In this document: in pieces, positions 38,435 through 60,915 of the stretch
Layout of the letters: every line of letters begins with the position of its first letter
Position numbering within the stretch: position 1 is the first letter of the stretch
From: Candidatus Gottesmanbacteria bacterium
Lineage (GTDB): Bacteria; Patescibacteriota; Microgenomatia; UBA10105; UBA927
Assembly (NCBI GenBank): GCA_016218255.1
Contig: JACREN010000044.1
Location: forward strand, 2,489 to 66,488
Length of the DNA stretch: 64,000 nucleotides
Direction of reading: 5' to 3'
Notes under the pieces: model-generated
What the model was told of the DNA's origin: nothing
The model's database searches: none
The model's input: only the letters and a program-made list of their open reading frames with translations
Program-made: the position numbers and the translations under genes

Positions 38435-39118
38435 TCAGGTAAATCTGTATCGGATTAGTGTCCATAATGCGGCGATTCCATCTCTCCATGTCAGCTTCTT
38501 TCCTTCAGAAAATTTTCGTCCGTAATATGAAATAGGCACCTCATAGATCTGATAACCCGCCTTTAGAGTTTTTGCAGTAAATTCAGGCTCAAAATCGAAC
38601 CGCTTCGAACAAATGGTAATTCCCTCTAATACTTGACGGCGAAATACTTTATAGCCTGTTTCCATATCCGTAATATTTGTGTTATAAAGCACATTTGTCA
38701 TAAGAGTAACAAACTTATTACCCATCATATATAGATACATCGTGGACAAATGCGGCCCCAAAAATCGTGATCCATATACCACATCGACTCGAGCGTCATG
38801 GAACGGTTCCAATAGTTTCTCGTAGTCATCTGGGCTATATTCCAAATCCGCATCTTGAATAAGAATAATATCACCAATAGCCTCCACGAAGCCCAATACC
38901 AAGGCCGCACCCTTTCCATTATTGATAGGCGCGTGTATCACATCGCACCGCTTCTCCCATTTTTTTAATATCTCGCCCGTACCATCAGTCGATCCATCAT
39001 TCACTACAATGATTTGCTTCTTCCAGTCTGATAGTTTTTTTGAAAAAACCGCAGACAAAATTTTATCAATGGAAAACGCTTCGTTATAGACTGGTATAAT
39101 AATAGAAACTGTTTTCAT
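38435..39118 (-). CDS. Family-2 glycosyltransferase, DPM1-like polyprenol-phosphate sugar synthase (soluble form)
   Basis: 227 aa with 'VSIIIPVYNEAFSI', 'VVNDGSTDGT' and 'IQDADLEYSPDD'. Confidence 0.8.
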   Translation of the reverse strand: MKTVSIIIPVYNEAFSIDKILSAVFSKKLSDWKKQIIVVNDGSTDGTGEILKKWEKRCDVIHAPINNGKGAALVLGFVEAIGDIILIQDADLEYSPDDYEKLLEPFHDARVDVVYGSRFLGPHLSTMYLYMMGNKFVTLMTNVLYNTNITDMETGYKVFRRQVLEGITICSKRFDFEPEFTAKTLKAGYQIYEVPISYYGRKFSEGKKLTWRDGIAALWTLIRYRFT

Positions 39119-40226: not shown

Positions 40227-41229
40227 CAGTCGCGCCCGCTGTCTTTCTCCAGGTGAATTGTCTGACCCATGTAAATTGTTTCTGACGTAATTTCTCCCGT
40301 TCGCCGATGGAAATATTTATTGCAATCTTGATGCCCTGAAAAATCGCATCTTGATCTGATGCGTCTACCCTTATCGCCGGCCCGGCAATTTCGTCTAAAC
40401 TTGACCCTCGTGCACAGATAACCGGACAGCCGCTCGAAAAGGCCTCTAACACTGGTAATCCAAATCCTTCTGCGAAGGATGGCTGAATATATGCGGTTGC
40501 CAGATTGTATATGGCTGCCAACTCAGCATCGGTGACATAACCGGTTCGAATTATATCAGCATCTGCCTGAATTGCATGAATCAATGCATTGATACGCTGC
40601 GTTTCAGATAATGCATCGCTCTTGAACGATTTACCAACCAGAACAAGTTTTAAGCCTTTCGGCTTAGCACGCAATAACCCTATAACATTTTTATTCCAAT
40701 TTACATCACCAACATACAGAAGATATTGCGTTGGCAACTGATATTTTCTTTGTACTGAAGACAGTTCTTTTTTGTCATTTATTGGACGAAATATGTCACC
40801 GGGCGCAAGATAAACCGTATCAATCAAAGCATCCGGAACACCTACTATCTTCTGAATGTCTTGCTTGGAAGCAAAGGAATCTGTAATAATCCGTCGTGCA
40901 CCCCGAAGAGATGCTCTCTGTATATACCATTTCACTTTCCCACGAACACCGCTGGGAAAGTATTCAGGATACACCAAGGGAATAACGTCGTGCACGGTCA
41001 CTACCACTGGTTTGGATTTCACCAACGGGAGAGTAAGAAAAAATGGATCGAAGTAAGGATAATGGACTATATCAGCACTTTTGGGTACTTTTTGTTTTCG
41101 GGTAAAAAAAGAATATGAATGTTTATTTTCATATTTCTGCAACGCCTCTATTAATAATCCTGTATAGGACCCAATGCCTCTATCTCTGTGCTCGCCCTCC
41201 AAAGAGGTGGTATCAATGGCAATATGCAT
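40189..41229 (-). CDS. GT4 (GT-B fold) glycosyltransferase
   Basis: 346 aa with 'YLLYVGDVNWNKNVIGLL' and 'PSFAEGFGLPVLEAFSSGCPVICARGSSLDEIAG'. Confidence 0.75.
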   Translation of the reverse strand: MHIAIDTTSLEGEHRDRGIGSYTGLLIEALQKYENKHSYSFFTRKQKVPKSADIVHYPYFDPFFLTLPLVKSKPVVVTVHDVIPLVYPEYFPSGVRGKVKWYIQRASLRGARRIITDSFASKQDIQKIVGVPDALIDTVYLAPGDIFRPINDKKELSSVQRKYQLPTQYLLYVGDVNWNKNVIGLLRAKPKGLKLVLVGKSFKSDALSETQRINALIHAIQADADIIRTGYVTDAELAAIYNLATAYIQPSFAEGFGLPVLEAFSSGCPVICARGSSLDEIAGPAIRVDASDQDAIFQGIKIAINISIGEREKLRQKQFTWVRQFTWRKTAGATVGAYEKAFGDSN

Positions 41230-42790
41230 ATCTTCTGAGTATACCCAATCCCATCATGCACGACAAACTGACGATCGAGATTAAATCTGCGCCAACCCTA
41301 ATAGGAGTTTCCGCAAACAGAACTTCAATCGCGTGAACTCCCTTTCTCGCCGAGAAAAATATCGTCCCGTCTTCGCTATAGTTAATAAGCTGTTTATTTC
41401 CATCAATCATAACGACCCATCCCGGGAAATACAGACGATTCAGCCGAATCACAGCATCTTCTTCGATATCCGCCACGGCTCGCATAGTAAGTGGCGTTTG
41501 TGTTTGCACAATTATCGTTCCTTTACCTTGCAATACCTCAACGGATTGTGCTGCACGACTTGATTTCCAAGGAGACCATACAGTAGAAAAACTATTGCCG
41601 AGCGATGATGTTCCGTCGGTAAATTCCCTGCGCGACAAATAGTAGGCATCATCACGGTCCATGTAGACAACTGGGTTCATATACTGCAACGAAAACCCGA
41701 TACAGAGAATCGCAAGACCAATCGCAACCCATCGAGCACGAATTCGATAGCTCACATATGCGACAAAAAAGCCAGCTAAAGGCATGACCACTACCAATAA
41801 CCTCCATGGATACTGCACAAACTGCAAAACAGAAAAAAACTCCCATAAGGGGAGAGTTATGGTCTGCATCAACAGAATGACAAATAAAAACAATACGAGA
41901 CCTCCGCTCACCAGTATTTTCAACCATCGTTTTCTTTCAAAAATATTACATACGAACGCAAGGAAAGCCGCCACAACCGCTATGACGCCTAATTGCTGAG
42001 ACATCTCCCCGTCAGGAACGCCTACCTGTGAAAAATTAGTCCCCCAGGAAGGAATCAGCAGCTGGGACAATTCAGGAAAATGTTCACGAAAATTTACGAC
42101 GTTCAAACCCACCATAAAGTTTCTTTCCAAGATAGCGGGTATCCAAAAATATGCGGATAAACCAAGCCCCATCATGGCATATCCGAGATATCGCCACCTT
42201 CTAATGAACAGATAGATAACTACAATAGGAAAGAAAACAATAGAAAGAATATTGTGAGAAAGTATCATTCCTGCAGTTGCCAGGCTTATAACGATCTCTC
42301 TCTGGTGCTCCACGGCTGCCAATAAAAGCATGAACCAGGCCATGAAGATCACTTCCCCGATAGACCCACGAACATATAATTCCACAAACCAGTAAGGAAC
42401 AAAAAGAAATGCGATGGTTCCTACTGCACCTGAAAACTTTCCAAATATCTTTGATAGCCAAACATAGCAAAAAAGACCAGCGGAAAGATACCCGGCCGCC
42501 AGAGCCAACTTGAACGAATCAGTCAAATTCCAACCCAAAGCATGAAAGAAAACACCGATGTAATTCGGAAGCGGGTAGTGAAAATTAAAAAGAGGCAAAC
42601 CGTATCCGCTGTTTAAACCAGGCGCCCACCGCGGGAACCAATATCCTGACCGCAGCATAGTCTCAAATTCATAAAACCGAATCAAATGGTATTCACCATC
42701 ATGAGTCGGAATAAATCCCGGCCTCAAAAGAGGCAATACTGCTGCTATTGATGCGAGCATTAAAATTAAAAATACGATCTTCGTTTTCAT
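41213..42790 (-). CDS. Polytopic membrane protein of the 'HDG' family (GT-C/YfhO- or PTPS-related-like), paralog of 49127..50722 and 59290..60915
   Basis: 525 aa. N-terminal TM helix, then 'PTHDGEYHLIRFYEF...RWAPGLNSGYGLPLFNFHYPLPNYI'. It is collinear with the two paralogs. Confidence 0.5.
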   Translation of the reverse strand: MKTKIVFLILMLASIAAVLPLLRPGFIPTHDGEYHLIRFYEFETMLRSGYWFPRWAPGLNSGYGLPLFNFHYPLPNYIGVFFHALGWNLTDSFKLALAAGYLSAGLFCYVWLSKIFGKFSGAVGTIAFLFVPYWFVELYVRGSIGEVIFMAWFMLLLAAVEHQREIVISLATAGMILSHNILSIVFFPIVVIYLFIRRWRYLGYAMMGLGLSAYFWIPAILERNFMVGLNVVNFREHFPELSQLLIPSWGTNFSQVGVPDGEMSQQLGVIAVVAAFLAFVCNIFERKRWLKILVSGGLVLFLFVILLMQTITLPLWEFFSVLQFVQYPWRLLVVVMPLAGFFVAYVSYRIRARWVAIGLAILCIGFSLQYMNPVVYMDRDDAYYLSRREFTDGTSSLGNSFSTVWSPWKSSRAAQSVEVLQGKGTIIVQTQTPLTMRAVADIEEDAVIRLNRLYFPGWVVMIDGNKQLINYSEDGTIFFSARKGVHAIEVLFAETPIRVGADLISIVSLSCMMGLGILRRYAYCH

Positions 42791-42794
42791 ACTT

Positions 42795-44039
42795 TCATCT
42801 CAATGCTATAATTCCCATTTGATATACAATAACGGAGAAAACGACACCGACAATATATAACGCATTGATCTTGCCCTCTAGGCCAAATAGCAACAAGAGC
42901 ACCAATATTGCGGTAATATCGAGCGAATACCGATATCCGAACTGCATCCACCCGGTACTATAAAGAAGAAGACTGGGAATCATTGTGATAATCGCAGCAA
43001 CCCAGAGAGATAAGATATACGGATCAATTATCAATCGCCCGCGAACTCTACGCCAAAATTTTGCTAAAAAGATTGCCAGAAAAGGAGGCGTCAGATAGAA
43101 AATCGAGCTTCCCTTCAGGTCGAAATTTAATCGCAACCCATGGCTCCAATACAGGGTAGGCAATTCAAAAAACATATAGCGTATATTCGTTGCGACGTGA
43201 GATAGCGACATAATTCCGTATCGCTCGCGCAGGGATGACAGATTTGGCGCTTCGGTAATAAATCGATACCCATATTCCAGTGGATTTCCGAACCGGAGCC
43301 AATTATAGAGAAAAAATATGCCGGTAAAAATACCTAACGGTATTCCGAATATCGCTATCCCATTTCGAATAGCACGCACTTTCTGCTTCCATAAGACCAT
43401 TGCAGAAAGAAAAAAATCCCAACTATAAAGCAAAGCCGGTATACTAACCAGTAGCACAATCGTTGCCCGACCCATCAGAACAACTCCAAAACATAACACC
43501 GAAAAAAAGTATGACCACTGCGTCCGTTTTTTTTTAAATACGCTGTATATACCAAGTGTGCCAAAAAAGTTCGATACCATCTGGTCTACGTGCCAGACCG
43601 AACCGAGAGTCCCCACATAAATATGTGTTGTCCCAAAGGCAAATAAAAACAACGCTAACCACAAAGACGACTCTGACAGATAAGGCAAAAATTCCTGTTT
43701 TATGCGCCGCAGAAGAAAATAAAAAACTACCACATCCGCGCTCGCAAAAAACAAGGTTAAATAAAGCGGTGGAACGAAACGCCCCTTTATGAGCTGAACC
43801 GGAATCAGAAACAAAGCTGGCAACATGCCCCATGGGGCATACCATTTGCCGCCATATTGCACCAAATCATATGTCACCGGCGGATTGACGATATCAAAAC
43901 GGCCTTGCCGAATCGACTGCGCCAACGGATTAAAGTAATCCAAATACCATTTAGGCTGAAACGAAAAACCGGTTGCAATACCAAAAGACAGTACAAAAAC
44001 TGATAGAAAGAGTACAAGTGGTACGCCTATCTTTTTCAT
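42795..44039 (-). CDS. Polytopic membrane protein, function unknown
   Basis: 414 aa with more than 10 predicted helices and no recognised soluble domain. Confidence 0.4.
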   Translation of the reverse strand: MKKIGVPLVLFLSVFVLSFGIATGFSFQPKWYLDYFNPLAQSIRQGRFDIVNPPVTYDLVQYGGKWYAPWGMLPALFLIPVQLIKGRFVPPLYLTLFFASADVVVFYFLLRRIKQEFLPYLSESSLWLALFLFAFGTTHIYVGTLGSVWHVDQMVSNFFGTLGIYSVFKKKRTQWSYFFSVLCFGVVLMGRATIVLLVSIPALLYSWDFFLSAMVLWKQKVRAIRNGIAIFGIPLGIFTGIFFLYNWLRFGNPLEYGYRFITEAPNLSSLRERYGIMSLSHVATNIRYMFFELPTLYWSHGLRLNFDLKGSSIFYLTPPFLAIFLAKFWRRVRGRLIIDPYILSLWVAAIITMIPSLLLYSTGWMQFGYRYSLDITAILVLLLLFGLEGKINALYIVGVVFSVIVYQMGIIALR

Positions 44040-45649
44040 AATCGATATACCGTAACTCTGTCATCACGATAGGAAACCGTAAGATTCGTATCAAATACAG
44101 ATCGGTCTATGATATATCTGAAATTTGCTGGCGGATGTGTCGGAATAGCAATATAATCAATGTTGTTTGATTTTGCATCATGCAAATCAGTATCGCTTTT
44201 TGCCTCAAAAAATCTCGTCGCATTTCTTCTTCGCTCCGATATAGGGTACCCCATCACCTCACCATAATACGTAGCGCCGAAATAGTTTCTTCTGCCGGCA
44301 AGCGTCACCGGATCGAGTGTATCTTCCCGTGAAAGAAAAACGGCGTTGGGAGATGTACTTGTTTTAATCCACTGCATAAACGCATCTGTTGGTGCATCCG
44401 GAACGGCAAACTGAAAATCATTTTTCACCGCCATCATGTCGACGACGCCGGAAGCCGTCAGTAAAATTACCAACACCAAACTCGCGCATTTCATACATAC
44501 ATTTCGCCTCCACATTTCTATAATTGCATATGCGATAAAGATGTTGGTGAAAATCAAAAAATAATTAATCAGTGTATGATTATGATCGATTCTATAGCTA
44601 AGCTGAAACACGTTCGCTATAACAAAAAGCGGTACTACCGACCAAAATAATTTTCGTGCCTTTGGAGCGGCAATTGCTATGGCATATGCCAACACGAATG
44701 GGGCAATGCCTAAATTTTGCCACCAATACGCGAAAAATCCGGCTACAGTCAGCGGCCGTGGCGCTAAAAAACCGGGATTTAACCACTTGTATCCCAAATC
44801 AGGGTCACGATACTGCAAAAGATCCGCTATTCTGGGAAATGCCACGAGAAGTGCCGCAACATACAATGCCGCCAGTCTCTTCCCCTGATGAAAATATATA
44901 AACAGCAAGCCGATCACGATCAAGTTTGCCGCAAAAATCAGTGTATGAATCCAGAAGATCATACCCAATAATAATCCTGTGCCAATAAGCGCAGTAAGCG
45001 GAATTTTCCTCTTATTCATGAGCCGCGGCAATAGATAGACGATTACCCCAAGACTCGTCGCCAATGCCACAATCAGATGCCGTTGATTCAACAACACGTT
45101 CAGCGTAAAAAATAGAGAAATAGTCGATCCGTCAAACGGCCCTTTGTTCAGATAATCAGGCAAATACCAAAACCGCCGTATAAGGTCAGGCCCGATACTA
45201 TTTTGCTTTATAAAATCCACGAATGTCAGATTGCTATGAAAAATAAATAACAAAACGGAAAGTATTCCCGTAGTGACATTTCTTCCGAAGAGAATACCGG
45301 TAAGCCGGTAAATATAAAAGAGTGCCACGGCAAAGGCAAGCGCACTGAGTCCGTTCAGCGCAATATCTATGCGTATACCTGCACGCTCCAATAGGCCGAC
45401 GGTTAAATCAAAACCATAGTGGTACGGGAGAGGCCTCCCGGGGAAAAAAGGCAGCTGAGCAGGGAAATTATTACCCCAGGAAAATGACCGTATTAAAGAG
45501 AGGTGCAACCCGAAATCTCCCAGCTGGTGGCGCGCAATGCGGAACGCATGACCCGATGCATTGTAGCCGAACGATTTATTCATCAGCCAAAATGCAAAAA
45601 GCAAGAAAATGCCAAATAACAGAAGATCACTTTTTTTTATGTGCTGCAT
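44036..45649 (-). CDS. Polytopic membrane protein with a C-terminal soluble domain, function unknown (GT-C-like topology)
   Basis: 537 aa. The N-terminal two-thirds is hydrophobic; the C-terminal ~150 aa is soluble. Confidence 0.4.
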   Translation of the reverse strand: MQHIKKSDLLLFGIFLLFAFWLMNKSFGYNASGHAFRIARHQLGDFGLHLSLIRSFSWGNNFPAQLPFFPGRPLPYHYGFDLTVGLLERAGIRIDIALNGLSALAFAVALFYIYRLTGILFGRNVTTGILSVLLFIFHSNLTFVDFIKQNSIGPDLIRRFWYLPDYLNKGPFDGSTISLFFTLNVLLNQRHLIVALATSLGVIVYLLPRLMNKRKIPLTALIGTGLLLGMIFWIHTLIFAANLIVIGLLFIYFHQGKRLAALYVAALLVAFPRIADLLQYRDPDLGYKWLNPGFLAPRPLTVAGFFAYWWQNLGIAPFVLAYAIAIAAPKARKLFWSVVPLFVIANVFQLSYRIDHNHTLINYFLIFTNIFIAYAIIEMWRRNVCMKCASLVLVILLTASGVVDMMAVKNDFQFAVPDAPTDAFMQWIKTSTSPNAVFLSREDTLDPVTLAGRRNYFGATYYGEVMGYPISERRRNATRFFEAKSDTDLHDAKSNNIDYIAIPTHPPANFRYIIDRSVFDTNLTVSYRDDRVTVYRL

Positions 45650-46745
45650 AAAGTCCCATAAAGACGGCGGGCGGGATAAATGTTACCAGTTTTTTTGTAA
45701 GCGGCGTAACCCCACCCCAATTGCGATGATACACAAATGGAGCAAACCGCAACGGTAATCCAAACGCGAAACCCAACGTCGTTATCTGCAGCCATGACCA
45801 CGGAGAACCAAGCGCTACAAATGTCAGCGGCCAAAGCAGGTACCATGCATATATCTCTTCTCGGATGGGAGAAAGAAAAAATATCATATACATCACGATG
45901 GCGCACCATCGCCAAACAGATTCCCATCGTATAGGCTTCCCTTGCACAACCATCGCAAAAGTTACCACATAGACAGGTAATAAAAACACCGTCGCAAATT
46001 TAATCAATATTGAAGCCAAAAGTGCAACCAGTGACCAATACCATCGTTTTCTCGCTATTAACTCAAAACTTAACAGGGCAAAAAACATCATCACAATGTC
46101 ATTGTGCCCGCTCCCCAACGTTTCGATCAGAACCAATGGATTGAGACCGAAAAACGCAACGGAAAATGCACTTTTAGACCTCTTCCATACCAAAGAAAGA
46201 ACACCGACATAAAACGCGGCAGCAAACAATTTGAACATCCCGATAGTGAGCAATAGATTGTTAAACCCCAAAATATATGGTACTCCGGTCAACGCAATCC
46301 ATACGGGTCCATAGAGCGCAACCTTATTGGAAGCATGAAGAAAACGCAGCATTGGTTCATTTGGGATATCGATCGGCATAATGAGATACGGGTTCTCCCG
46401 ATAAAGAAATGTGATTTTTGCCGTCGCAATGTAATTAAATACATCATAGGAAAACCCTGGAAACGAAAACAGCAAAATTGCGGCGCTTACCGACATGAGC
46501 ACAATGACATGTTTTAATAGCATCCGCTTCCGATATATCTGATACAAAAACAAAATATACCCTACAAATAATAATGCCTGGAGCGCTACGTAGGAAACTG
46601 CCGCCCACGGACGCAGTAAAACAACAAATTCATAGAGTAATGGAACGGTACGAATCGGCATATTCGCGTCCACAAAACCCCACGAAAATATACCTACGAG
46701 GATAAGTACTAAGCTATAAAAAACGGACAATACAATAATGTTCAT
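45627..46745 (-). CDS. Polytopic membrane protein, GT87/DUF2029-like GT-C candidate
   Basis: 372 aa. 'FSYDVFNYIATAKITFLYRENPY' and 'ILIKFATVFLLPVY' parallel the motifs in 56551..57813. Confidence 0.45.
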   Translation of the reverse strand: MNIIVLSVFYSLVLILVGIFSWGFVDANMPIRTVPLLYEFVVLLRPWAAVSYVALQALLFVGYILFLYQIYRKRMLLKHVIVLMSVSAAILLFSFPGFSYDVFNYIATAKITFLYRENPYLIMPIDIPNEPMLRFLHASNKVALYGPVWIALTGVPYILGFNNLLLTIGMFKLFAAAFYVGVLSLVWKRSKSAFSVAFFGLNPLVLIETLGSGHNDIVMMFFALLSFELIARKRWYWSLVALLASILIKFATVFLLPVYVVTFAMVVQGKPIRWESVWRWCAIVMYMIFFLSPIREEIYAWYLLWPLTFVALGSPWSWLQITTLGFAFGLPLRFAPFVYHRNWGGVTPLTKKLVTFIPPAVFMGLYAAHKKK

Positions 46746-47860: not shown

Positions 47861-48372
47861 AATATCCGTTTTTGTTTCGCTTCAAAAAATATTTTTGTAA
47901 AATCCAAAAAAACCGGCTCCAGCTTCTCCGGTTTCCACACATATTGAGCAGGTACTTCTGTCTGTATTCCATCTAATGTTTTCAGATGCTTTTCCGAAGC
48001 TTCGCTGATTTTTTGCCGCAATTTGGAAACATTTTTTCCTTCTTTTTCTATCTCATGAAGAAGCCCGGGGAGGACAGTAAATTGCTCATTTGATCGCGTT
48101 AATGCATCGACTGCCAAAACATATTGCTGATATTCAAATAATGTTTTTGCTTCAACCAAATATTTATCCGATAGCTGTAAATGATACTGTAGCGACGCAA
48201 TAGATCCCCAATACCAGTATCGTTTCAACGAATCGGCTATACGGGATAGCAAGTAAAATTTACTTCCCGGCATTGACCCCGGATATGGCAATACATATTC
48301 TGCCCTCACGGTTGTCGTCCACAAAAACGCCGCAAAAACGAGTAATATATATAGAAAATATTGTTTTTTCAT
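47857..48372 (-). CDS. Small secreted protein, paralog of 21865..22449
   Basis: 171 aa. Signal peptide 'MKKQYFLYILLVFAAFLWTTTVRAEY', then 'VLPYPGSMPGSKFYLL'. Confidence 0.6.
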   Translation of the reverse strand: MKKQYFLYILLVFAAFLWTTTVRAEYVLPYPGSMPGSKFYLLSRIADSLKRYWYWGSIASLQYHLQLSDKYLVEAKTLFEYQQYVLAVDALTRSNEQFTVLPGLLHEIEKEGKNVSKLRQKISEASEKHLKTLDGIQTEVPAQYVWKPEKLEPVFLDFTKIFFEAKQKRIL

Positions 48373-49130
48373 TTTTGGCGTACACGATACTTTTGATACG
48401 CTATTGGATAATGCAGTGCCGAGAAAAGCGCGAATAAAAACCCATATATGCCATCGAGAAATCCTTTATGTCGTAAAAAAATAGAGAGAAACGTCTTTAC
48501 CGGCATAACTATTTCATATTGGATATAGGAAGCGATATTTTTTTTCTCGGCCACTCGAGCCAACTCATCAGCAGTCAACGACGTATATGCGTCAGCTTTT
48601 CTCCAGTAGTCTTTCATAGTTCGATAAGAATAATGCTCTAACGGTTCTTTCAGATATCCGACAGGACCTTCCACCACTATTTGTTCGTGGATATTTTTAG
48701 CGGGAAACCAACCCTTACCGCGCTTAAACAGACGCATCACATAATCAGGATATTGTCCGCCCTTATGAAGCCAATGTCCAAGAAAATAATTCCTTCGGGA
48801 AATATAATATCCGTTTTCTTTTGGATTACCGTCGATCATTTTAATGATCTCATTACGTAATTCATGCGTCACCACTTCATCGGCATCCAGCTGCAAAATC
48901 CAAATTCCGCTGCATGCATCCAATGCCTTCTGTTTATTTATGTGAAAAATCGGCGGGTTGGTCGTTTCAATGATTTTCGCCCCGAACGTCTTGGCTATGA
49001 GAACCGTATTGTCTCTCGACCCTCCATCAACAAGCACAATTTCATCCGCCCATCCGGACACCGACGCCAGAGAGCGCCCGATATGCGCTTCTTCATTAAA
49101 TGTTGCAATTGCAACAGAAAGTTTTTTCAT
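48369..49130 (-). CDS. Family-2 glycosyltransferase (small soluble GT-A)
   Basis: 253 aa with 'LSVAIATFNEEAHI', 'VLVDGGSRDNT' and 'LQLDADEVV'. Confidence 0.8.
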   Translation of the reverse strand: MKKLSVAIATFNEEAHIGRSLASVSGWADEIVLVDGGSRDNTVLIAKTFGAKIIETTNPPIFHINKQKALDACSGIWILQLDADEVVTHELRNEIIKMIDGNPKENGYYISRRNYFLGHWLHKGGQYPDYVMRLFKRGKGWFPAKNIHEQIVVEGPVGYLKEPLEHYSYRTMKDYWRKADAYTSLTADELARVAEKKNIASYIQYEIVMPVKTFLSIFLRHKGFLDGIYGFLFALFSALHYPIAYQKYRVRQK

Positions 49131-50722
49131 AATATGAGTAATATCGCTCCGACCACGCTTATGGCATTCGCCGCCTTTCGTAATTTCGTTTCTTGAAAAC
49201 GAACTTCGACCTGATGTTCCCCTGCCGGAACTTCAAACGTCATAAGCCCTCGCCATTCCGGATTCTGAAATTCTACAAAAACCGGCTTTCCGTCAACTGC
49301 CACTTCCCAACCCGGAAAATATAATGTATTTTCGACCAACTTCGCCTTCTGTGATGCAATCACACGATACCTATGGCGTGTCGTTGATCGGGATAATTCG
49401 GTTACGGTCACAAGCCCCTCGACAGCTTCGAGAGCCGCTTTGGACCGAGCCTCCATAAATCTTACAGACCAAATGGGGCTGCTTTCCCCTGTGTCAGTGG
49501 TCCCCTCATAGACACTAGTATAATAACTTTCCGGCTTTATACTATACGCTTGGGCGTGCCACATGGGAAACGTGAAGGCAAAACTCGCGAGTAGTACGAT
49601 ACCGCAAAACATTATTCTTGATGTTTTCCTTACCGATGACACGACCACTCCTCCCAAAGCAGATACAAAAAATACCGTAAGGGTTAATAATCTCCAAGGA
49701 AACTGAAACTTCTGCAAAATAGTAACCTGCTGCCAAATGCCGGACGACCAACCAATCATAAGAAATATTGACAATGCCAGCGATATGAATAAGGGTCCAA
49801 TCATCCACCGTATCACGTTCTTTTTCGATCTGAAAAAGGTCACGGCACTCGCCATAATCACAAACCACTGAGCCATACCCAATTCCTTAGGCAATTCATT
49901 CCCTCCGCCATAATTCCAAGGCGTAAAGAAAAATTTTTGTATTGGCACAAACCGGTCCGAAAAATCACCCCTGGTTACAATATCCCGCAGTGTGTATTTT
50001 CCTTCAAAAAATGCCGGAACCCAAAAAAACGATGCCAGCATAAATCCGATCGCAATAGACCAGACCCCAAAAACGATAAACCAACGGCGTTGGGTGGTCT
50101 CAAAAAAGTTCAAATATACCCCATAGAGAAATATCACAGGAAAAAACATTAAACTTATGGCGTTATGCGAGAGAAGAAGCCCGGCAGTAGAAGCCGCGAC
50201 CACCATACCCCACCGACGATTGCCAGAACGCGCCAGCTTTAAAAGTCCCCAGAGCACGAGCGGAAGAAAGACAAACGCAACATGTTCCCCTATGGCTCCG
50301 CGCACGTACAAATCCACAAAACGATACGGAGCAAAGCCATACAGCACTGACGCGGCTAGTCCAGCAATGCTGCCCCATTGAGACCCTGCCCATACGAACA
50401 TTGCGATCATGCTTATTATATACGCCGCTGCAAACACCAGTTTGGTCGCATCAACGAATGAAAACCCTACAAAATGAAAAAACGACGCGACATATGATGG
50501 CAACGGATATAAAAACATGAGAATCGGATGTCCGTATCCCCAATTAAGATTTCCTGCCCAGCGAGGAACAATATGCCCTTCGGAAAGAGACTGATAAAAA
50601 TTCGCTATACGCGTTACATGGTCCTGTCCGTCATGCGTAACAGGTAAACCGGTATGCAATAAATCCCAAAGAGGGAGTAGTGAAAATACTATGATAACGA
50701 ATAGCCACCAACGTGTTTTCAT
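49127..50722 (-). CDS. Polytopic membrane protein of the 'HDG' family, paralog
   Basis: 531 aa with 'PVTHDGQDHVTRIANF...RWAGNLNWGYGHPILMFLYPLPSYV'. Confidence 0.5.
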   Translation of the reverse strand: MKTRWWLFVIIVFSLLPLWDLLHTGLPVTHDGQDHVTRIANFYQSLSEGHIVPRWAGNLNWGYGHPILMFLYPLPSYVASFFHFVGFSFVDATKLVFAAAYIISMIAMFVWAGSQWGSIAGLAASVLYGFAPYRFVDLYVRGAIGEHVAFVFLPLVLWGLLKLARSGNRRWGMVVAASTAGLLLSHNAISLMFFPVIFLYGVYLNFFETTQRRWFIVFGVWSIAIGFMLASFFWVPAFFEGKYTLRDIVTRGDFSDRFVPIQKFFFTPWNYGGGNELPKELGMAQWFVIMASAVTFFRSKKNVIRWMIGPLFISLALSIFLMIGWSSGIWQQVTILQKFQFPWRLLTLTVFFVSALGGVVVSSVRKTSRIMFCGIVLLASFAFTFPMWHAQAYSIKPESYYTSVYEGTTDTGESSPIWSVRFMEARSKAALEAVEGLVTVTELSRSTTRHRYRVIASQKAKLVENTLYFPGWEVAVDGKPVFVEFQNPEWRGLMTFEVPAGEHQVEVRFQETKLRKAANAISVVGAILLIL

Positions 50723-53306: not shown

Positions 53307-53312
53307 GCATGG

Positions 53313-54935
53313 TCAGTCGGCAATTTTTATAGCTTCTTTCCCGTCCAGATAACGAATCGTCATGAGGCCGGGACCCGGAATTTCACCCGGCGTGCCAATG
53401 TACAGCACCGTACCGTCTTTAACGTCCGTGTCCCAATGAATGGGACGGAATTCGTATATATCAAATGTATTTCGCACCTCTGCAAATCCGCCGGACGAAG
53501 TACCTCCTTTAGCCAGATACTTGACCGGATCATACTTCAAAAAATAGAGAAAAAACATATGCGGCTGCTCAAGTTTTGTGGAAACAACAATTTTTTTATA
53601 TCTGTCTTTCTGTATCTTTGTGTACTCGACGGCCTGAGCGTATCCATACTGCCATGATGAAGAATATTCCTCATTCAAGTGGCCGAAATACATATGGAGA
53701 TAATACAGAACATTCACAGCAAAAAGCGCGGTAACAAAAAGACGAAGAATATAATCTTTATATTTAAAATAACGCTTATAAAAATTTATCAGCCCCACTG
53801 CCGTAAATATCTGAAATGTCGGTAAAAATACGAGCGTCCGTATGGCATGAGGCAATTCAGTAGTTGGTGATGCCGCGATCGGTGCGATCAAAAACCATCC
53901 GAATATGATGCGTGCTTGTCTGCCTCTTTGCCGCGCCAATATAAACATGCCCCACAACAGGAACGGCAACTCTGCTAAATACAATAACCCCATATCAGGA
54001 GCATGATGACGCGCGTTATCCCCGGTCAAAAACAGCCATCGCAGTGAGTAATGAGAGAGATATCCACTTGTCAATGTTTTTATCCAGACGATACGCCGGT
54101 TATCGAACATGACTCCCCACGGATTATTCGCTTTCTGATCTTCTTCAAGTTTCCATACGCTTCTTGCCAATAATCCGGTCTGATCTGCCAGAGAACTGGT
54201 CCCGCGCAGCCGCATCAGCGTATTCTGATTCATAAATACCGGCACGAGCGGCGCCACAGTCATCAATCCTACGATTGCCGCTATCACTACGTTTACCCGC
54301 ATCCGAAAAAGTTCCTTTCGGTAATTCAAGACGAGAATCACCAAGAGCAATGGGAGAAATATCCGCTCACTATGATATGCATAAAATCCCAAACCAAACA
54401 AAAATGCAGACACCGATAACCACCGTCTGCTTAAAACGCCTTTCAAAAAAAATACTACGGCCCAAATGTTTATCGTGACACCGATATTTGCTTCAAAAGC
54501 AATACGGGAAAACTGAATGTGCCAGGGTGAAATAGCCAACAACAACATTGCTGTTACCGGAATACCAAATAAAGACTCCTTATTTGCACGTTTTAACAAT
54601 TCTTGTGTTAGGAAATAGGTTCCGATGACCGCAAGTATTCCTGCAATCACCGATGGAAGCCGAACAGCCCATGTATTTAACCCAAACAAGGCAACCGAAG
54701 GGACGGTTAAATACATATATAGTGGTGGCTTATAGTCGTCGAAAGATCGAAGCGTGAGCGGAAACCACGTACCGTACTCATCGCGGCCGGTTTTCAGCAC
54801 CGAATATGCATTGTATCCAAGCGCTGCTTCATCCCAGTCAGGACTTGGTGGCACTTGCCCAAGCTGCCATAATCGCAGCCAAGCAGCAACTAAAACGATG
54901 ATAAAGATACAAAAATAGGAAAATTTCTTGCTCAT
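53313..54935 (-). CDS. ArnT/PMT-family (GT39/GT83) GT-C glycosyltransferase
   Basis: 540 aa with 'PPSPDWDEAALGYNAYSVLKTGRDEYG' and 'AVRLPSVIAGILAVIGTY'. It is a tandem paralog of the flanking genes. Confidence 0.65.
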   Translation of the reverse strand: MSKKFSYFCIFIIVLVAAWLRLWQLGQVPPSPDWDEAALGYNAYSVLKTGRDEYGTWFPLTLRSFDDYKPPLYMYLTVPSVALFGLNTWAVRLPSVIAGILAVIGTYFLTQELLKRANKESLFGIPVTAMLLLAISPWHIQFSRIAFEANIGVTINIWAVVFFLKGVLSRRWLSVSAFLFGLGFYAYHSERIFLPLLLVILVLNYRKELFRMRVNVVIAAIVGLMTVAPLVPVFMNQNTLMRLRGTSSLADQTGLLARSVWKLEEDQKANNPWGVMFDNRRIVWIKTLTSGYLSHYSLRWLFLTGDNARHHAPDMGLLYLAELPFLLWGMFILARQRGRQARIIFGWFLIAPIAASPTTELPHAIRTLVFLPTFQIFTAVGLINFYKRYFKYKDYILRLFVTALFAVNVLYYLHMYFGHLNEEYSSSWQYGYAQAVEYTKIQKDRYKKIVVSTKLEQPHMFFLYFLKYDPVKYLAKGGTSSGGFAEVRNTFDIYEFRPIHWDTDVKDGTVLYIGTPGEIPGPGLMTIRYLDGKEAIKIAD

Positions 54936-56554
54936 AATCCCTGATCAAACAACACAAGCGCTGTTTTTCCGTTTAACAATCGAACCGTGGTGATGACCCG
55001 CGCAGAATCCGGTAAATACTGCGGTTCAAGAACATACAATATCCTTGGTTCCATTTTGTCGATCCCCTGCCGGACAAACCGGTATTTACCCAACCGGTGC
55101 GGGTTATAGAACCCGGCCGCATCGAATGCCCCATCCATTGTTTTTCTGTATTCTCCAGGGTCTAATCGTTCATAAAACGCTATATACATATGAGGCCGAC
55201 CGATATTTTCCGTCATAACGATAGCGTCGTATTGATTTTTAATAGGTTCGATTGCACGAATTGCTTCACGATACCCGTACTGCCATTCACCTGAATACTC
55301 CACTACATAATGAGTAAAATAGTTATGCCAATAATACGAAAAGCTAGCAGAATACAGAAACGCTATTGCGCCCAATAAAATAAATTTTTTCTTGGCCAGT
55401 ATAGGATACCGAATAGCGGATAGCAATCCACACGCGATAAATATCTGCCAAACTGGCAGGCTGTTTTCAATGCGGAGTGCATGTGGCGTTTCACGAGCCG
55501 TTGCCGCAGGAATTATTGCGCCTATCAGCCAAGCAGCCAGAAACCATGCCGTGCGTCGGTCTCGCACAAAAAGCCAATATATCCCTGCAATCAATAACGG
55601 CAACTCAATAATATGCAACTGTCCCACATCCTGGATAGAAAATTTCGGGTTCCCGTCGCCACGAATAAACAGAAAACTCGGTTCAAAGTGATCCAGCAGA
55701 TGGAGTAAATAGCTTTTTGTATAGCCGATGCGACGATTATGAAATATTTTAGACCACCAACTGTTTCCATCTGTCTCAATCCGGTGATTTGCAGTCTGCA
55801 CGACGGAAAAGTCAGTAAAAATATTTACCTCTGCAAACCGCAGCCGCGCCTGTGGCGAAATTAGGTATGGCACGATAGGAAACAAAAATACAAAAGCAAC
55901 GATTACTCCAGCAACGAATTGTTTTGTGTGGCGACGCACCTCTTTCCAACAGTAAATAATGAGTAGCACCCCTAAAATAGGTGCAAAGTATCGAGCGCTA
56001 TTAAATGTGTAAATACTCGCAACAAACGGCAACCACGCGACAATAAATAAATGGTTCCTTTCTCGAGCTTTTAATACACACCAAATTCCTAAAACAACAA
56101 AAAATAACGCGGTGTTTGCTTCGAATCCCGCTCGAGACAACTGCATATGCCACGGAGAAATAGCAAGTAAAAATGAAGCAAGAAGTGATAAACGGATCAA
56201 GTGAGGTGATTTGTTAAACAATTCTCTAACAAGGAAATAAGTCAGTAAAACGGTCAAAGTTCCGGCAACAACTGATGGCAAACGTACTGCGAGTTCACTA
56301 AGCCCAAATAATGCAACAAACGGAACAGTAAGATATACTGGCAAGACCGGTTTGTAATCTCCATACGCGACAAATGCATCCAGCGGGAAAAGACGCCCAA
56401 ATTCATCTCTACCGGTCTTCAAAATGCTATATGCGTTGTATCCTATGGAAACTTCATCCCAAGATAAAGACGGAGGTATTTGTGCTACCTTATAAAACCT
56501 GAGGAAAAATGCCAGAACCACTGTCAGTGCCAAGACCGCATAGGTTTTTTTCAT
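54932..56554 (-). CDS. ArnT/PMT-family (GT39/GT83) GT-C glycosyltransferase
   Basis: 540 aa with 'PPSLSWDEVSIGYNAYSILKTGRDEFG' and 'AVRLPSVVAGTLTVLLTY'. Confidence 0.65.
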   Translation of the reverse strand: MKKTYAVLALTVVLAFFLRFYKVAQIPPSLSWDEVSIGYNAYSILKTGRDEFGRLFPLDAFVAYGDYKPVLPVYLTVPFVALFGLSELAVRLPSVVAGTLTVLLTYFLVRELFNKSPHLIRLSLLASFLLAISPWHMQLSRAGFEANTALFFVVLGIWCVLKARERNHLFIVAWLPFVASIYTFNSARYFAPILGVLLIIYCWKEVRRHTKQFVAGVIVAFVFLFPIVPYLISPQARLRFAEVNIFTDFSVVQTANHRIETDGNSWWSKIFHNRRIGYTKSYLLHLLDHFEPSFLFIRGDGNPKFSIQDVGQLHIIELPLLIAGIYWLFVRDRRTAWFLAAWLIGAIIPAATARETPHALRIENSLPVWQIFIACGLLSAIRYPILAKKKFILLGAIAFLYSASFSYYWHNYFTHYVVEYSGEWQYGYREAIRAIEPIKNQYDAIVMTENIGRPHMYIAFYERLDPGEYRKTMDGAFDAAGFYNPHRLGKYRFVRQGIDKMEPRILYVLEPQYLPDSARVITTVRLLNGKTALVLFDQGL

Positions 56555-57813
56555 GTTTCCTTTTCATCGAGATCTTTTAATATTCCCAAAGCGAATATGC
56601 TGGAAAGATATCCTACGTGACTGTTATTGAAATACCTGCTCGCCCACCACCAGACAAATAAAAACGCACCATATCCGATTAACAATCGGGACATTGTCCC
56701 TCGCTTCCAAAGTGCTCCTAGGCTAACGCCAAGTACCGGTATTGCCAGCACAATCTGCCAAACAAAAAAAGGATAGTATGCATGTATATCCCGGACAACA
56801 CCGGCCTCTCGAAGCACCATGCCCAACCCATACCCGGAGACAGGATAGGAAAATGCCGAACCTCCGCTTAAATATAAAATCGTACTTTCAACGAAAGCAC
56901 GATAATCCCACAAAAGAAACGGGCCAGCCAACACAAAAAGAACACCCGTTGCCGGTACTGCGATCTTGACAAAAAACGGCGTAATTTTCTTTAGCGATAT
57001 CCACGCATATATGCCATAAAAAGGAAGTGCCAGCCACACCGTCTGTTTTGACAGGATAGCCAAACTGAATAACAACGAAGACCAGACATACCGTTTCTTT
57101 TCTAGCGAATAGAGCGAACACATGAGCCAGAAAAGGGCAAATATATCGCTCCTGCCTTCAATAAGATAATCAACAGTTGCCGGCGACAACGCAGTTAAAG
57201 CAACGGCAATGAACGCGATTGACTTATTCCTGAACCAAAAAAGCAAAAGTGCTAAAACACCAAACGCGCTGAAAAGAAGCTGCATCCGTCCGTCAAAAAA
57301 TCCAAATAGGGGTATGGCTACCGCATAAAACGGCAATGCAGACAACAAATACCACGGCGGCATGACAAAATGGTAAAGTGCCGGGTTTACGGCTTCTTTA
57401 CCTTCTTCTGCATAATGCCAGCTTTCCAAAGGTGTTCCAAAATATGTTTCCTTATACGGATTTTTGCCCGAAATGAGATACCGCATTGCTGCTTCCTGCT
57501 GGAGGATAATATCGTGCACCCCGTATACCGGAGCAGTTTTGCTCCGGTCCACCATAGCCGTCACCATCGTACCGCCCAATACGATCATAACCGTCACAAT
57601 AAGCAAGACCAGTTTTATCTTTAGTACCCGTATTTCTTTTCCGATAAACCCGGGATACATAGAAATGAGAACATTTATAAGAAGCACGAAAAATAATATG
57701 CCGAATAACCAATATGGTGTACCCGTAACCGGAAAAATTCTATACCGCATCACCACCGGCACCGAGAGAGAGAAAAGAAGCAGCGCGTCCAATGCCAGAA
57801 GATTCATATGCAC
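56551..57813 (-). CDS. Polytopic membrane protein, GT87/DUF2029-like GT-C candidate
   Basis: 420 aa with 'VHDIILQQEAAMRYLISGKNPY' and 'LAILSKQTVWLALPFY'. Confidence 0.45.
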   Translation of the reverse strand: MHMNLLALDALLLFSLSVPVVMRYRIFPVTGTPYWLFGILFFVLLINVLISMYPGFIGKEIRVLKIKLVLLIVTVMIVLGGTMVTAMVDRSKTAPVYGVHDIILQQEAAMRYLISGKNPYKETYFGTPLESWHYAEEGKEAVNPALYHFVMPPWYLLSALPFYAVAIPLFGFFDGRMQLLFSAFGVLALLLFWFRNKSIAFIAVALTALSPATVDYLIEGRSDIFALFWLMCSLYSLEKKRYVWSSLLFSLAILSKQTVWLALPFYGIYAWISLKKITPFFVKIAVPATGVLFVLAGPFLLWDYRAFVESTILYLSGGSAFSYPVSGYGLGMVLREAGVVRDIHAYYPFFVWQIVLAIPVLGVSLGALWKRGTMSRLLIGYGAFLFVWWWASRYFNNSHVGYLSSIFALGILKDLDEKET

Positions 57814-59297
57814 TATCGATTGTACACGTAGATGCGAGCATTTTCCACGTCTGACGTTTTATCTAATTGCCAACCGGTTAGATCCAATACCGGATGTTCA
57901 CCGCCGCAAAATCGTTTGAAGCAAACAATGTCAAGTCTCGTTTTCTCCTTCATATCCGACTCACCTGGACATATTTCTGATTCGCAGACCAAAAATAATC
58001 GCCGGTAATTCGGGTCGCTCATTATCACGGGCTCATTGTGCCGCCATAGGAAGAAATACCGGTAGTGCAAATCAGAAAATGATCGGGATGCAAACAACGC
58101 AAATGAATACGGTGTAGCACCGGACTCATCTCGTATAACGTCAACGACATGGCCAATGCGGGATATATCCCGGGGTCCAGCAGTAAATACATCTGTCTGG
58201 TGGATACTCCAAACAAACAATACTATCGAGATGATAATCAAACCTTTTTTAGGGATAGCCGATTCAAGCGCTTGAAGTACACCACCCATAAATACAAACG
58301 GCAAGGGAAGCATAAAATGCAGATAATGGTCAAATACCGTCCCCTTATATAGGGATATAGCGGCGATGCCGCCGACATACCATACTCCCCAAAAAAATGA
58401 CCAAAACGATCGCTTCCAAAACAGAGCAACGACGGCAAACAATTGAATTGCTATCAGCATATTACGGCTGACGCCAGGAATCATCGTTCCAAATAATCGA
58501 CTCGAGTAATCAATCATCTGTTCCCACATCGGAGCTACAGTAGCCGCCCCGTTTCCACCAGAAGTCAGCATGGTAAAAGCGATTTCCCTCACATCCGCCC
58601 ATGCATGGCTCATTTCATAGACAAAAAACGGCGTAAGCACGCCGAAAAAGCCAATCACACCTCCCACTGCTCCCAGAGCAAGCGGCCAAATACGGCAGCG
58701 CTTGTTTAATGCCATGGCAAGAATCAAAATCAAACTTAACCCGACAAAGATGACATTGGGGTAATGAAGCTGTACTAGAATTCCTACGACTATTCCCAAA
58801 GGCAACAACGAAAACGGAAACTGTTTCTCGTAGGCACGGTAAGCCAGATAAAGGAAAAAAATTACAAAGAGAGGCACTATGGTGGGTTCCCAAAGCGTCC
58901 GGTCAGCTCGAACGATAGACGGAGAAACTGCATACAGCCCGGCTACTGCAATTCCTATCCAGGATCCATACAGTATGGATGCAAACCGGTACAATAATAA
59001 AACAGCTAGAATCCCAAGCATCGCCATAAAAATGCTTGGAATGATGGGATGAAAACCCCCGAAGACAAACGGCAGCCCGATAATATAGTAAAAGGCCGGA
59101 CCCAAAAATTGTCCCGTAAGGACTGGTGGTCCAACTAAGGGCAATTGCCGGACTTTCCAAGCTTCATAAATGATCATTCCCGTCCGGCCTTGATCACCCA
59201 GGAACTCCGTTAAGTCGTTTATACGCCACAGGCGAAAAAACCCCGCAAAGACAAGAAGCACCAATATAAAAACCTTGGTATAATGAACCTTGCTCAT
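57813..59297 (-). CDS. Polytopic membrane protein, PMT_2-like GT-C candidate
   Basis: 494 aa with 'FLGDQGRTGMIIYEAWKVRQLPLVGPPVLTG'. The ATG at 59297 shares a CATG palindrome with the divergent gene start. Confidence 0.4.
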   Translation of the reverse strand: MSKVHYTKVFILVLLVFAGFFRLWRINDLTEFLGDQGRTGMIIYEAWKVRQLPLVGPPVLTGQFLGPAFYYIIGLPFVFGGFHPIIPSIFMAMLGILAVLLLYRFASILYGSWIGIAVAGLYAVSPSIVRADRTLWEPTIVPLFVIFFLYLAYRAYEKQFPFSLLPLGIVVGILVQLHYPNVIFVGLSLILILAMALNKRCRIWPLALGAVGGVIGFFGVLTPFFVYEMSHAWADVREIAFTMLTSGGNGAATVAPMWEQMIDYSSRLFGTMIPGVSRNMLIAIQLFAVVALFWKRSFWSFFWGVWYVGGIAAISLYKGTVFDHYLHFMLPLPFVFMGGVLQALESAIPKKGLIIISIVLFVWSIHQTDVFTAGPRDISRIGHVVDVIRDESGATPYSFALFASRSFSDLHYRYFFLWRHNEPVIMSDPNYRRLFLVCESEICPGESDMKEKTRLDIVCFKRFCGGEHPVLDLTGWQLDKTSDVENARIYVYNR

Positions 59298-60915
59298 GAA
59301 ATCATTTAAACATTATCTTCTCATACTTGCAATTTCTGTTCTTCCGGTCGCAACCGTATTTTTTACTCCTGACCTACCACATACCCATGATGGACCTGTA
59401 CATTTAGCACGAATGGCAGCGTATTACAAGGCACTTACTGCCGGACAAATTTTTCCTCGCTGGGCAAGCGACCTCAATTACGGCTATGGCATGCCGCTGT
59501 TTAATTTTATCTATCAATTGCCGTACCTGATAGCGTCAGTGTTTCTTTTTCTGAACACCAGCCTTGTGTTGTCTTTTAAATACACACTGGCACTGAGTTA
59601 TTTACTTTCCGGTATATTTATGTTTGCTTTTGCCAAAGCGTTCTGGAAAGATGATAAAAAGGCGCTATTGGTCGCACTTTTTTATCAATTCGCGCCGTTC
59701 CGGTTGGTTGAACTTTTTGTACGCGGAAGCTTTGGAGAGATTTATACATACGCACTGCTTCCGCTTGTCCTCTTGGGCCTCACACAAATCCGAGCATATT
59801 TTATCCTCACAAGTGTGGCTTCAGCGCTTCTTATCATCTCGCATAATTCCATGAGTTTGATTTTTTTCGGCGTTTGCGTACTTTTTGTGTTCTTTTTTGC
59901 AAAAACTGCCAAACTACGAGCGCTTTCCTTTATTGCCTTAATCTGCGGCCTTCTTCTTTCTGCCTGGTATTGGCTTCCTGCGATCATGGAACACCGATAC
60001 ACGTACGGCGATCTTTTCATGAAGGATATGTACCGGGACCATTTCGCTCCAATTTGGCAATTTATATTACCCAATTTCATAAATAGCCCGTTACTCCAAA
60101 CCGGCGGTGTAAGCGTTCAATGGGGCATCTTCCACATCGGTGCCGTGTTCCTTTCGCTCGTATTCATTGTTCGAAATAAGCTGTCCGCCTCGGAAAAAAC
60201 TGTAGCGATTTTTTCTCTTATACTTACCACTGGGTCGCTGTTTTTTATGCTATACCCGTCGATATATTTCTGGAAAACTATTCCAATCCTTCGCCAATTT
60301 CAATTTCCCTGGAGGCTTGTCGGACTTGCAGGCTTTACCACGTCATTACTTTCCGTTTATTACCTATCACTCCCAATTTTCCATAAAACGAAGGCCTTCA
60401 CACTGCTACTCACCCTTGTTGTACTATCGACTTCATATTATTGGCTGCCTCCATTAGGTTTTGATCAAGTACGGGATGAGTCTCAATATTGGAATTATCC
60501 CCTGAACACCACATATTTCGGCGAAACAGACGTCATCTGGTCAGCAGGTCCCGCAAAGGCATACCCAAAAGAGCGTGTTGAGGTAGCAGAGGGAAAAGCA
60601 GTTATCTCCGCTTTTACCCAAAAATCTATCGTCCAAACACTCCAAGTCAACGCAACAACCAATGCGACTCTCGTATCACATACTCAATATTTTCCGGGGT
60701 GGCGGGTATTTGTAGATAACAACAAGGTACCCATTCAATTTCAAAACGCCAATTGGAGAGGCCTCATCACCTTCCCCGTTCCGACGGGCCAGCACACCAT
60801 ACACATAAAACTCGGAAAAACCAAAGTACAATTTATTTCGGAAATTCTCTCGCTGTCAACGCTCATACTCATGACGGGAGTTGTATTATGGAGAAGGGTA
60901 GGACGCACGACATGA
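59290..60915 (+). CDS. Polytopic membrane protein of the 'HDG' family, paralog (plus strand)
   Basis: 541 aa with 'PHTHDGPVHLARMAAY...RWASDLNYGYGMPLFNFIYQLPYLI'. The ORF track start is a TTG; the ATG is at 59296. Confidence 0.5.
   Translation: MLMKSFKHYLLILAISVLPVATVFFTPDLPHTHDGPVHLARMAAYYKALTAGQIFPRWASDLNYGYGMPLFNFIYQLPYLIASVFLFLNTSLVLSFKYTLALSYLLSGIFMFAFAKAFWKDDKKALLVALFYQFAPFRLVELFVRGSFGEIYTYALLPLVLLGLTQIRAYFILTSVASALLIISHNSMSLIFFGVCVLFVFFFAKTAKLRALSFIALICGLLLSAWYWLPAIMEHRYTYGDLFMKDMYRDHFAPIWQFILPNFINSPLLQTGGVSVQWGIFHIGAVFLSLVFIVRNKLSASEKTVAIFSLILTTGSLFFMLYPSIYFWKTIPILRQFQFPWRLVGLAGFTTSLLSVYYLSLPIFHKTKAFTLLLTLVVLSTSYYWLPPLGFDQVRDESQYWNYPLNTTYFGETDVIWSAGPAKAYPKERVEVAEGKAVISAFTQKSIVQTLQVNATTNATLVSHTQYFPGWRVFVDNNKVPIQFQNANWRGLITFPVPTGQHTIHIKLGKTKVQFISEILSLSTLILMTGVVLWRRVGRTT

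Follow-up and report, generated by a model that had tools for sequence, protein, structure and literature searches.

Three paralogous HDG-motif membrane proteins, probable GT-C-fold glycosyltransferases, in a glycan gene cluster of a Candidatus Gottesmanbacteria bacterium

A 64,000-nucleotide stretch of a Candidatus Gottesmanbacteria genome (assembly GCA_016218255.1, contig JACREN010000044.1, positions 2,489 to 66,488), hereafter the window, harbours three genes coding for polytopic membrane proteins that share an H-D-G motif close to the N-terminus and are designated HDG1, HDG2 and HDG3. An earlier note made from the DNA sequence alone (the original prediction) had described three open reading frames (ORFs) of 525–541 amino acids (aa), and all of them were recovered: HDG1 at 41213..42790 (minus strand, 525 aa), HDG2 at 49127..50722 (minus strand, 531 aa) and HDG3 at 59290..60915 (plus strand, 541 aa if read from TTG 59290). 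The translation of HDG3, however, more probably starts at ATG 59296, since the MKSF... encoded from this codon lines up with the MKT... of the other copies; the gene then spans 59296..60915 and encodes 539 aa. HDG3, the only copy on the plus strand, is translationally coupled to a YfhO-like gene starting at 60912, and the ATGA overlap reported for this pair is indeed present at 60912-60915. Hidden Markov models (HMMs) of the HDG family, run against the 111 ORFs in the window with 80 aa or more, revealed no fourth copy. The 537-aa product of the neighbouring gene 44036-45649, which carries a D...H...R-like N-terminal string, was also considered as a family member and discarded (hhalign probability 1.8%).

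The three proteins share 30–33% pairwise amino acid identity in a full-length three-way alignment and find one another in BLASTP with E values of 1e-59 to 1e-90, a similarity so far beyond chance that they are genuine paralogues. In agreement with the original prediction, one transmembrane (TM) helix precedes the HDG motif both in the structural model described below and in hydropathy analysis. The motif reads THDGEYH in HDG1 (THDGEYHLIR, residues 29–38, 42677..42706, minus strand, in the first extracytoplasmic loop), THDGQDH in HDG2 (THDGQDHVTR, residues 29–38, 50609..50638, minus strand) and THDGPVH in HDG3 (THDGPVHLAR, 59383..59412, plus strand), giving the shared form THDGxxHxxR. Hence the HDG(E/Q/P)xH part of the pattern proposed previously is found in all three copies, while the residue in front of it, given there as T or P, is always T. 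The RWA element is invariant and present as PRWA. The third element, described as ending in YPLP, occurs in every copy as well (GYGLPLFNFHYPLP, GYGHPILMFLYPLP and GYGMPLFNFIYQLP in copies 1, 2 and 3, respectively), but copy 3 has YQLP instead, so that the consensus becomes GYGxP(L/I)(F/L)xFxY(P/Q)LP. The alignment also exposed further motifs invariant in HDG1–3 which the original prediction had not listed, namely VRGxxGE, SHN, WxPAxxE, QxPWRL and YFPGWxVxVD.

It had been suggested that these proteins may be PTPS-related (PF10131) or YfhO-like (PF09586), and profile searches with both families bore this out in the case of HDG2, which scored 32.7 bits against PF10131 (gathering score 26.4; residues 72–420 on profile positions 4–335 of 621) and 36.4 bits against YfhO (gathering score 28.5; residues 442–513 on positions 758–827 of 835). 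The latter alignment is the best-scoring stretch of the YfhO match, a second matched stretch being reported as well. Among 51 diverse HDG relatives, 39 matched PF10131 (E≤1e-3), 17 the YfhO profile and six PMT_2, and one HDG1 orthologue gave a weak PF10131 match. The Pfam match begins past the HDG loop, at residue 72, and the HDG motif therefore lies outside the catalogued PF10131 domain. Judged by these scores, the HDG proteins appear to be members of PF10131 at the edge of detection. An HMM representing the HDG family found the neighbouring YfhO-like gene with an E value of 1.9e-13 (hhalign probability 82%). The HDG proteins would nevertheless be relatives of YfhO and not members of YfhO proper, because only the C-terminal domain matches, there is no full-length match and the proteins are ∼300 aa shorter. 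The best explanation is that HDG1–3 belong to a Microgenomates-expanded branch of PF10131, a family sister to YfhO. PF10131, a membrane family of bacteria and archaea, sits in the Pfam clan CL0111 of the glycosyltransferase fold C (GT-C) class (PMC7801869); it is thus catalogued already, with no characterised or solved member. In a profile search the HDG family comprised 17,492 representatives of 50%-identity clusters at E≤1e-3 and 5,433 at E≤1e-30. Four HDG-type relatives (P0121, P0122, P0123 and P0142; 1093–3329 aa) contain at least two complete HDG modules per polypeptide, and these are either true tandem GT-C fusions or the result of gene-calling read-through.

The AlphaFold2 model of HDG2, built on a 43-sequence alignment (predicted local distance difference test score 88.2, predicted TM-score 0.90), starts with TM1 (residues 2–22), which is followed by a short strand, an amphipathic helix (residues 32–47) and a flexible loop. 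About 11 more TM helices extend to residue 387, bringing the count in the model to ∼12, and the C-terminal part consists of a beta-sandwich (residues 431–509) and a terminal TM helix (residues 513–530). GT-C enzymes were retrieved as structural matches at a probability of 1.00. As polytopic proteins of a glycan cluster without a recognisable GtrA or Wzx flippase, the HDG proteins might also be taken for transporters or flippases of lipid-linked sugars, or for some other permeases. This reading is barely credible and is rejected here: no transporter family, a clear match to which the original prediction had named as evidence against itself, was matched in Pfam or NCBIfam; the structural match to a transporter is negligible (GLUT3, probability 0.23, TM-score 0.16); and the conserved polar residues all lie on one face of the membrane and not along a translocation path.

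The topology was deduced from the content of K/R versus D/E in the loops, averaged over 51 aligned relatives according to the positive-inside rule. The N-terminus, the short loops 164-172, 207-214, 297-305 and 361-367, and the C-terminus are rich in K/R and poor in D/E, and are for this reason assigned to the cytoplasm. The opposite, outer face would then carry the HDG loop in extracytoplasmic loop 1 (EL1), VRGxxGE in EL2, SHN in EL3, WxPAxxE in EL4, QxPWR in EL5 and the beta-sandwich. The outward orientation of the HDG loop, which the original prediction had raised as a point to be checked, is thus what the charge pattern indicates.

Residue conservation was counted over 150 cluster representatives (50% clustering; numbering of copy 1 is used unless stated otherwise). 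D31 is found in 147 of the 147 non-gap representatives. Nearly as well kept are R330 and the PGW of YFPGW (P456-G-W458; 99% each), G64 and P218 (98%), P66 and H179 (97%), R141 (95%), W55 and Y72 (93%), R54 and E222 (92%), and R38 and E146 (91%). The remaining residues of the motif vary more: H30 is present in 79%, G32 in 57% and H35 in 64% of the representatives, with Gln at the last position in 13%. The orthologue groups of Microgenomates keep THDGxxHxxR almost without exception (19/19 for HDG1, ∼70/74 for HDG2, 3–5/5 for HDG3). Given 147/147 for D31 against 79% and 64% for the two histidines, the Asp is the family-wide core of the motif and both His are a clade-level elaboration within Microgenomates. 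The anticipated conservation of His and Asp across homologues therefore holds for the Asp, so that loss of the motif, which would have spoken against the original prediction, is not observed, but for both His it is confined to the Microgenomates clade.

The same counts bear on the idea that at least one HDG paralogue is a non-catalytic scaffold or substrate-presenting subunit with a GT-C fold, comparable to PIG-U/GAB1, in a complex of several GT-C proteins. The many GT-C paralogues of a single operon could indeed form complexes, and tandem fusions of HDG modules exist. However, D31, R38, R141, E146, H179, E222 and R330 are kept in all three copies, and the same polar residues are kept in the orthologues, which is the pattern of active enzymes; a purely structural role is accordingly very improbable.

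In MtPMT and “most GT-Cs”, the reactive centre is composed of an Asp base in EL1, an acid in EL2 and an Arg/Tyr of a late loop at the lipid phosphate (PMC12331936). With D31, E146 and R330 on the predicted outer face, the HDG proteins seem to reproduce this canonical layout, and by analogy D31 is most likely the catalytic residue at the outer face of the membrane. When the HDG family is aligned with the PMT_2-type paralogues of the window (hhalign probability 83.7%, E value 8e-6), D31 comes to lie two residues ahead of the canonical DE motif in EL1 of those paralogues. The statement of the original prediction that the motif is not an ArnT/PMT signature is hence correct as far as its letters are concerned, but in fold and in the placing of the Asp the proteins agree with GT-C enzymes of the ArnT/PMT/STT3 type. 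A match of D31 to a catalytic residue of YfhO was also sought; hhalign pairs D34 with the YPD of the YfhO-like neighbour and gives no reliable residue-level correspondence, and for that reason no equivalence is claimed.

While it can be regarded as established that the copies are paralogues, to which family and fold they belong, how their topology is patterned, which residues are conserved and that the loci are syntenic, catalysis, donor type and acceptor are inferred as follows. HDG1–3 are probably paralogous GT-C-fold integral-membrane glycosyltransferases, to which we assign a probability of about 80%, a figure that refers to the enzyme class. Most likely they would work in the manner of YfhO, PMT and ArnT, taking sugars from polyprenyl-phosphate donors outside the cytoplasm and transferring them to a glycan or protein of the cell surface. 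In such a scheme, a cytoplasmic N-terminus and TM1 would lead into EL1 with T-H-D-G-x-x-H-x-x-R, followed by PRWA, GYGxP and ∼11 further TM helices, and the extracytoplasmic beta-sandwich with YFPGWxVxVD would be anchored by the last TM helix. The chemistry would be of the inverting GT-C type and would take place in the extracytoplasmic space, D31 acting at the interface of the membrane and the exterior as catalytic base or acceptor-activating residue. R141 and E146 (EL2), H179 (SHN), E222 and R330 (QxPWR) could bind the phosphate of the donor, perhaps together with a metal, the flanking His residues might tune metal or substrate binding within the Microgenomates clade, and the beta-sandwich may assist in positioning the acceptor. 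The donors would be made by GT2 enzymes of the cluster on the cytoplasmic face and then flipped, and each paralogue, acting beside ∼14 other GT-C enzymes of the operon, would add a distinct sugar or linkage to the growing surface glycan or surface protein. The enzymology itself is probably conventional GT-C chemistry.

A different donor is assumed if the HDG proteins are regarded as oligosaccharyltransferases (OSTs), ligases or polymerases, which, like AglB/PglB/STT3, would hand over a pre-assembled oligosaccharide en bloc from polyprenyl-diphosphate to a protein or polymer instead of moving single sugars from polyprenyl-monophosphate. In favour of this reading, the divalent metal needed by OSTs could be bound by the His-Asp...His arrangement, the GT4 and GT2 genes of the cluster could assemble a lipid-linked oligosaccharide, and Wzy_C is weakly matched by one HDG relative. 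A precomputed PF02516 (STT3) match is also on record for one database relative, P0077. None of the three window copies matches PF02516 in Pfam, however; neither a WWDYG- nor a DK-type OST motif is present, with no WWD in the three-way alignment; the sequence relatives, YfhO and PMT_2, use monophosphate donors; and several Dpm1/ArnC/PgfS-like synthases of monophosphate donors are encoded in the window. An OST-like activity is therefore unlikely.

Several observations weigh against the assignment of HDG1–3 as polyprenyl-phosphate-dependent glycosyltransferases. By themselves, HDG1 and HDG3 have no Pfam match at E<0.1. Sequence and profile searches of the PDB yielded no solved structure related by sequence to the HDG family, and a literature search found no functional study of PF10131/PTPS_related, COG5617/DUF2298 or the GT-C proteins of the Candidate Phyla Radiation (CPR)/Patescibacteria. 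That D31 corresponds to the catalytic Asp in solved GT-C enzymes depends on a moderate-confidence profile alignment with an offset of two residues. Finally, there is no gene for a GtrA-type flippase among the window ORFs, with almost no free coding space left, and the 253-aa GT2 coupled to HDG2 shows no more than weak matches to the models of polyprenyl-phosphate glycosyltransferases.

The entire 64-kb window is a glycan-biosynthesis supercluster with ∼17 polytopic GT-C-like genes. Between 38435 and 59297 the genes share a single strand with 4-nt overlaps or tiny gaps and are on this basis considered an operon. The immediate partners of the HDG genes are a GT2 (48369..49130, minus strand, 253 aa, Pfam Glycos_transf_2), which overlaps the stop codon of HDG2 by 4 nt and is its conserved downstream partner; a GT4 (40189..41229, minus strand), which has the same role with respect to HDG1; and the above-mentioned YfhO-like GT-C gene (60912..63230, plus strand, 772 aa, Pfam YfhO 88.7 bits), a distant homologue of the HDG family. 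A GT2 of the polyprenyl-phosphate hexose synthase type (38435..39118, minus strand), with NCBIfam matches to AglJ/PpgS/Dol-P-hexose transferase-like models, all below the equivalog cut-offs, is a candidate for the maker of the lipid-linked donor. A PgfS/ArnC-like GT2 (1346..2374, minus strand), which scores 223.5 bits to PgfS over profile positions 3–305 of 308, again below the equivalog cut-off, is a candidate second polyprenyl-phosphate sugar synthase. Further enzymes of the cluster include three DegT aminotransferases, two PseB/FlaA1-like dehydratases, two UDP-N-acetylglucosamine (UDP-GlcNAc) 2-epimerases, a hexapeptide acetyltransferase, a carbamoyltransferase (27492-29273), a formyltransferase (10499-11332), methyltransferases, a GH130-like protein (15262-16173) and several GT2 and GT4 enzymes.

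A second paralogue family, the PMT_2-type GT-C proteins, is encoded at 50719-52245, 53313-54935 and 54932-56554 on the minus strand and at ∼63205-64000 on the plus strand, and shares the EL1 motif PPSxxxDE(A/V)SxGYNAYS. The copy at 50719 was missed by Pfam; its translation probably begins at Met37 (ATG at 52245), and with this start little is left of the overlap with the epimerase gene. The fourth copy directly follows the YfhO-like gene and runs off the end of the window. Large ORFs (372–980 aa) with no Pfam match are located at 3999-6116, 6113-9055, 9052-10458, 37174-38430, 42795-44039 and 46742-47860, all on the minus strand; the ORFs starting at 42795 and at 46742 have syntenic counterparts in other loci of Microgenomates. 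Two DUF5667 proteins are encoded as well (47857-48372, minus strand; 21865-22449, plus strand), and in most related loci the former keeps its place after HDG2 and its GT2. The divergent genes 57813-59297 (minus strand) and 59296-60915 (plus strand, HDG3) have no intergenic region between them, since their start codons overlap within a CATG palindrome. A perfect TATAAT is located at 59280-59285, ∼11 nt upstream of the plus-strand ATG. This arrangement suggests that the promoters lie within the opposite gene and that the transcripts are leaderless or have a very short leader.

The organization of the operon was compared across 83 loci from Gottesman-, Woese-, Levy- and Curtissbacteria and other Patescibacteria metagenome-assembled genomes. 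The recurring order is PMT_2 – PMT_2 – (544-aa) – HDG2 – GT2(253) – DUF5667 – (372b) – GT87/MptA-like – (537, 414) – HDG1 – GT4 – GT2(227). The 253-aa GT2 directly follows the HDG2 orthologue in 46 of 70 loci, GT4 follows that of HDG1 in 11 of 12, and the YfhO-like gene comes after HDG3 in all five loci holding it. Because positions and partners are fixed across loci, HDG1–3 are ancient paralogues with distinct conserved roles and not recent duplicates. An alternative layout, HDG – GT2 – GT2(253-like) – HDG2 – YfhO-like – GT2(253-like) – YfhO-like, occurs in Levybacteria-type loci (L023, L029, L034, L036, L039, L051, L053, L054 and L058). The repeated placement of the 253-aa GT2 type beside HDG/YfhO-type GT-C genes hints at cognate GT2/GT-C pairs. 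Many loci, L005, L007 and L009 among them, come from Third Party Annotation (TPA) metagenome bins that carry a typical Microgenomates cluster under the title “uncultured Gammaproteobacteria bacterium”, which is probably a placeholder or a mislabel.

It is possible, though doubtful, that the HDG paralogues are fixed stations of a hitherto undescribed, Microgenomates-wide extracytoplasmic glycan assembly line with at least 13–17 GT-C enzymes per operon; the same low expectation covers jointly the line, its products, its donors and a metal-dependent H-D-x3-H subclass. No description of a conserved multi-GT-C Microgenomates operon was found in a literature search. Were it true, polyprenyl-phosphate sugars would be the sole material from which the line makes a complex surface polymer or glycosylates pili or S-layer proteins, as a functional analogue of the mycobacterial arabinogalactan/lipoarabinomannan (LAM) assembly in ultra-small CPR cells, and the H-D-x3-H site would mark off a subclass of metal-dependent GT-C enzymes whose acceptor specificity is new. 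The conserved multi-GT-C operon is the more interesting aspect of the locus. CPR/Patescibacteria genomes are tiny, and at a genome size of ∼1 Mb it is remarkable that at least 40 kb are given to surface-glycan genes, including ∼17 coding for GT-C proteins. CPR bacteria probably use their envelope glycans to attach to host cells, which gives the cluster a bearing on episymbiosis. The HDG family itself exceeds 17,000 cluster representatives in public data, with no member characterised or solved. The probable catalytic Asp, together with R141/E146, H179, E222 and R330, offers concrete targets for mutagenesis, as do the HDG2-GT2, HDG1-GT4 and HDG3-YfhO pairings for reconstitution.

Among the known systems, the “connected component 27” of Durairaj et al. 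(bioRxiv 10.1101/2023.03.14.532539) is a bacterial GT-C family of dark function, most members of which bear the label “YfhO family protein”. By description it resembles the HDG family in being bacterial and YfhO-adjacent, in its STT3/PglB-like fold and in lacking characterised members, but differs in its median length (665±169 aa) and in having almost no Pfam coverage. With PMT, PMT_2 and ArnT, a type that includes protein O-mannosyltransferases and the L-Ara4N transferase, the HDG proteins share an acidic EL1 residue right after TM1, the EL2 acid and the late-loop Arg. Their motif, however, is H-D-G...H and not D-E, neither MIR nor another PMT luminal domain is present, and the PMT_2 profile is touched by the above six of 51 relatives only. 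The likeness to PF10131 lies in the profile matches of HDG2 and 39 of the 51 relatives, the polytopic architecture and the GT-C fold; the HDG proteins nonetheless cover no more than positions 4–335 of the 621 and possess a YfhO-type C-terminus instead.

The YfhO protein of Bacillus, Staphylococcus and Listeria moves GlcNAc from C55-P-GlcNAc to lipoteichoic or wall teichoic acid, its partners being the GT2 CsbB and the flippase GtcA (PMC5836110, PMC8035078). The HDG proteins are shorter (∼530 versus ∼800–860 aa), do not match the 835-position YfhO profile over its full length, have a distinct EL1 motif and belong to a CPR bacterium, and no GtcA/GtrA gene is found nearby. The two nevertheless have in common the C-terminal extracytoplasmic beta-sandwich (431-509) and the terminal TM helix (513-530) with YFPGW, and the TM core of the HDG proteins is distantly homologous to the neighbouring YfhO-like gene; the HDG genes, too, are paired with GT2 genes. 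As regards the three-component CsbB/GtcA/YfhO system, a GT2 directly follows HDG2 in 46 of the 70 loci but matches the models of polyprenyl-phosphate synthases no more than weakly, and the window contains no GtrA-like ORF.

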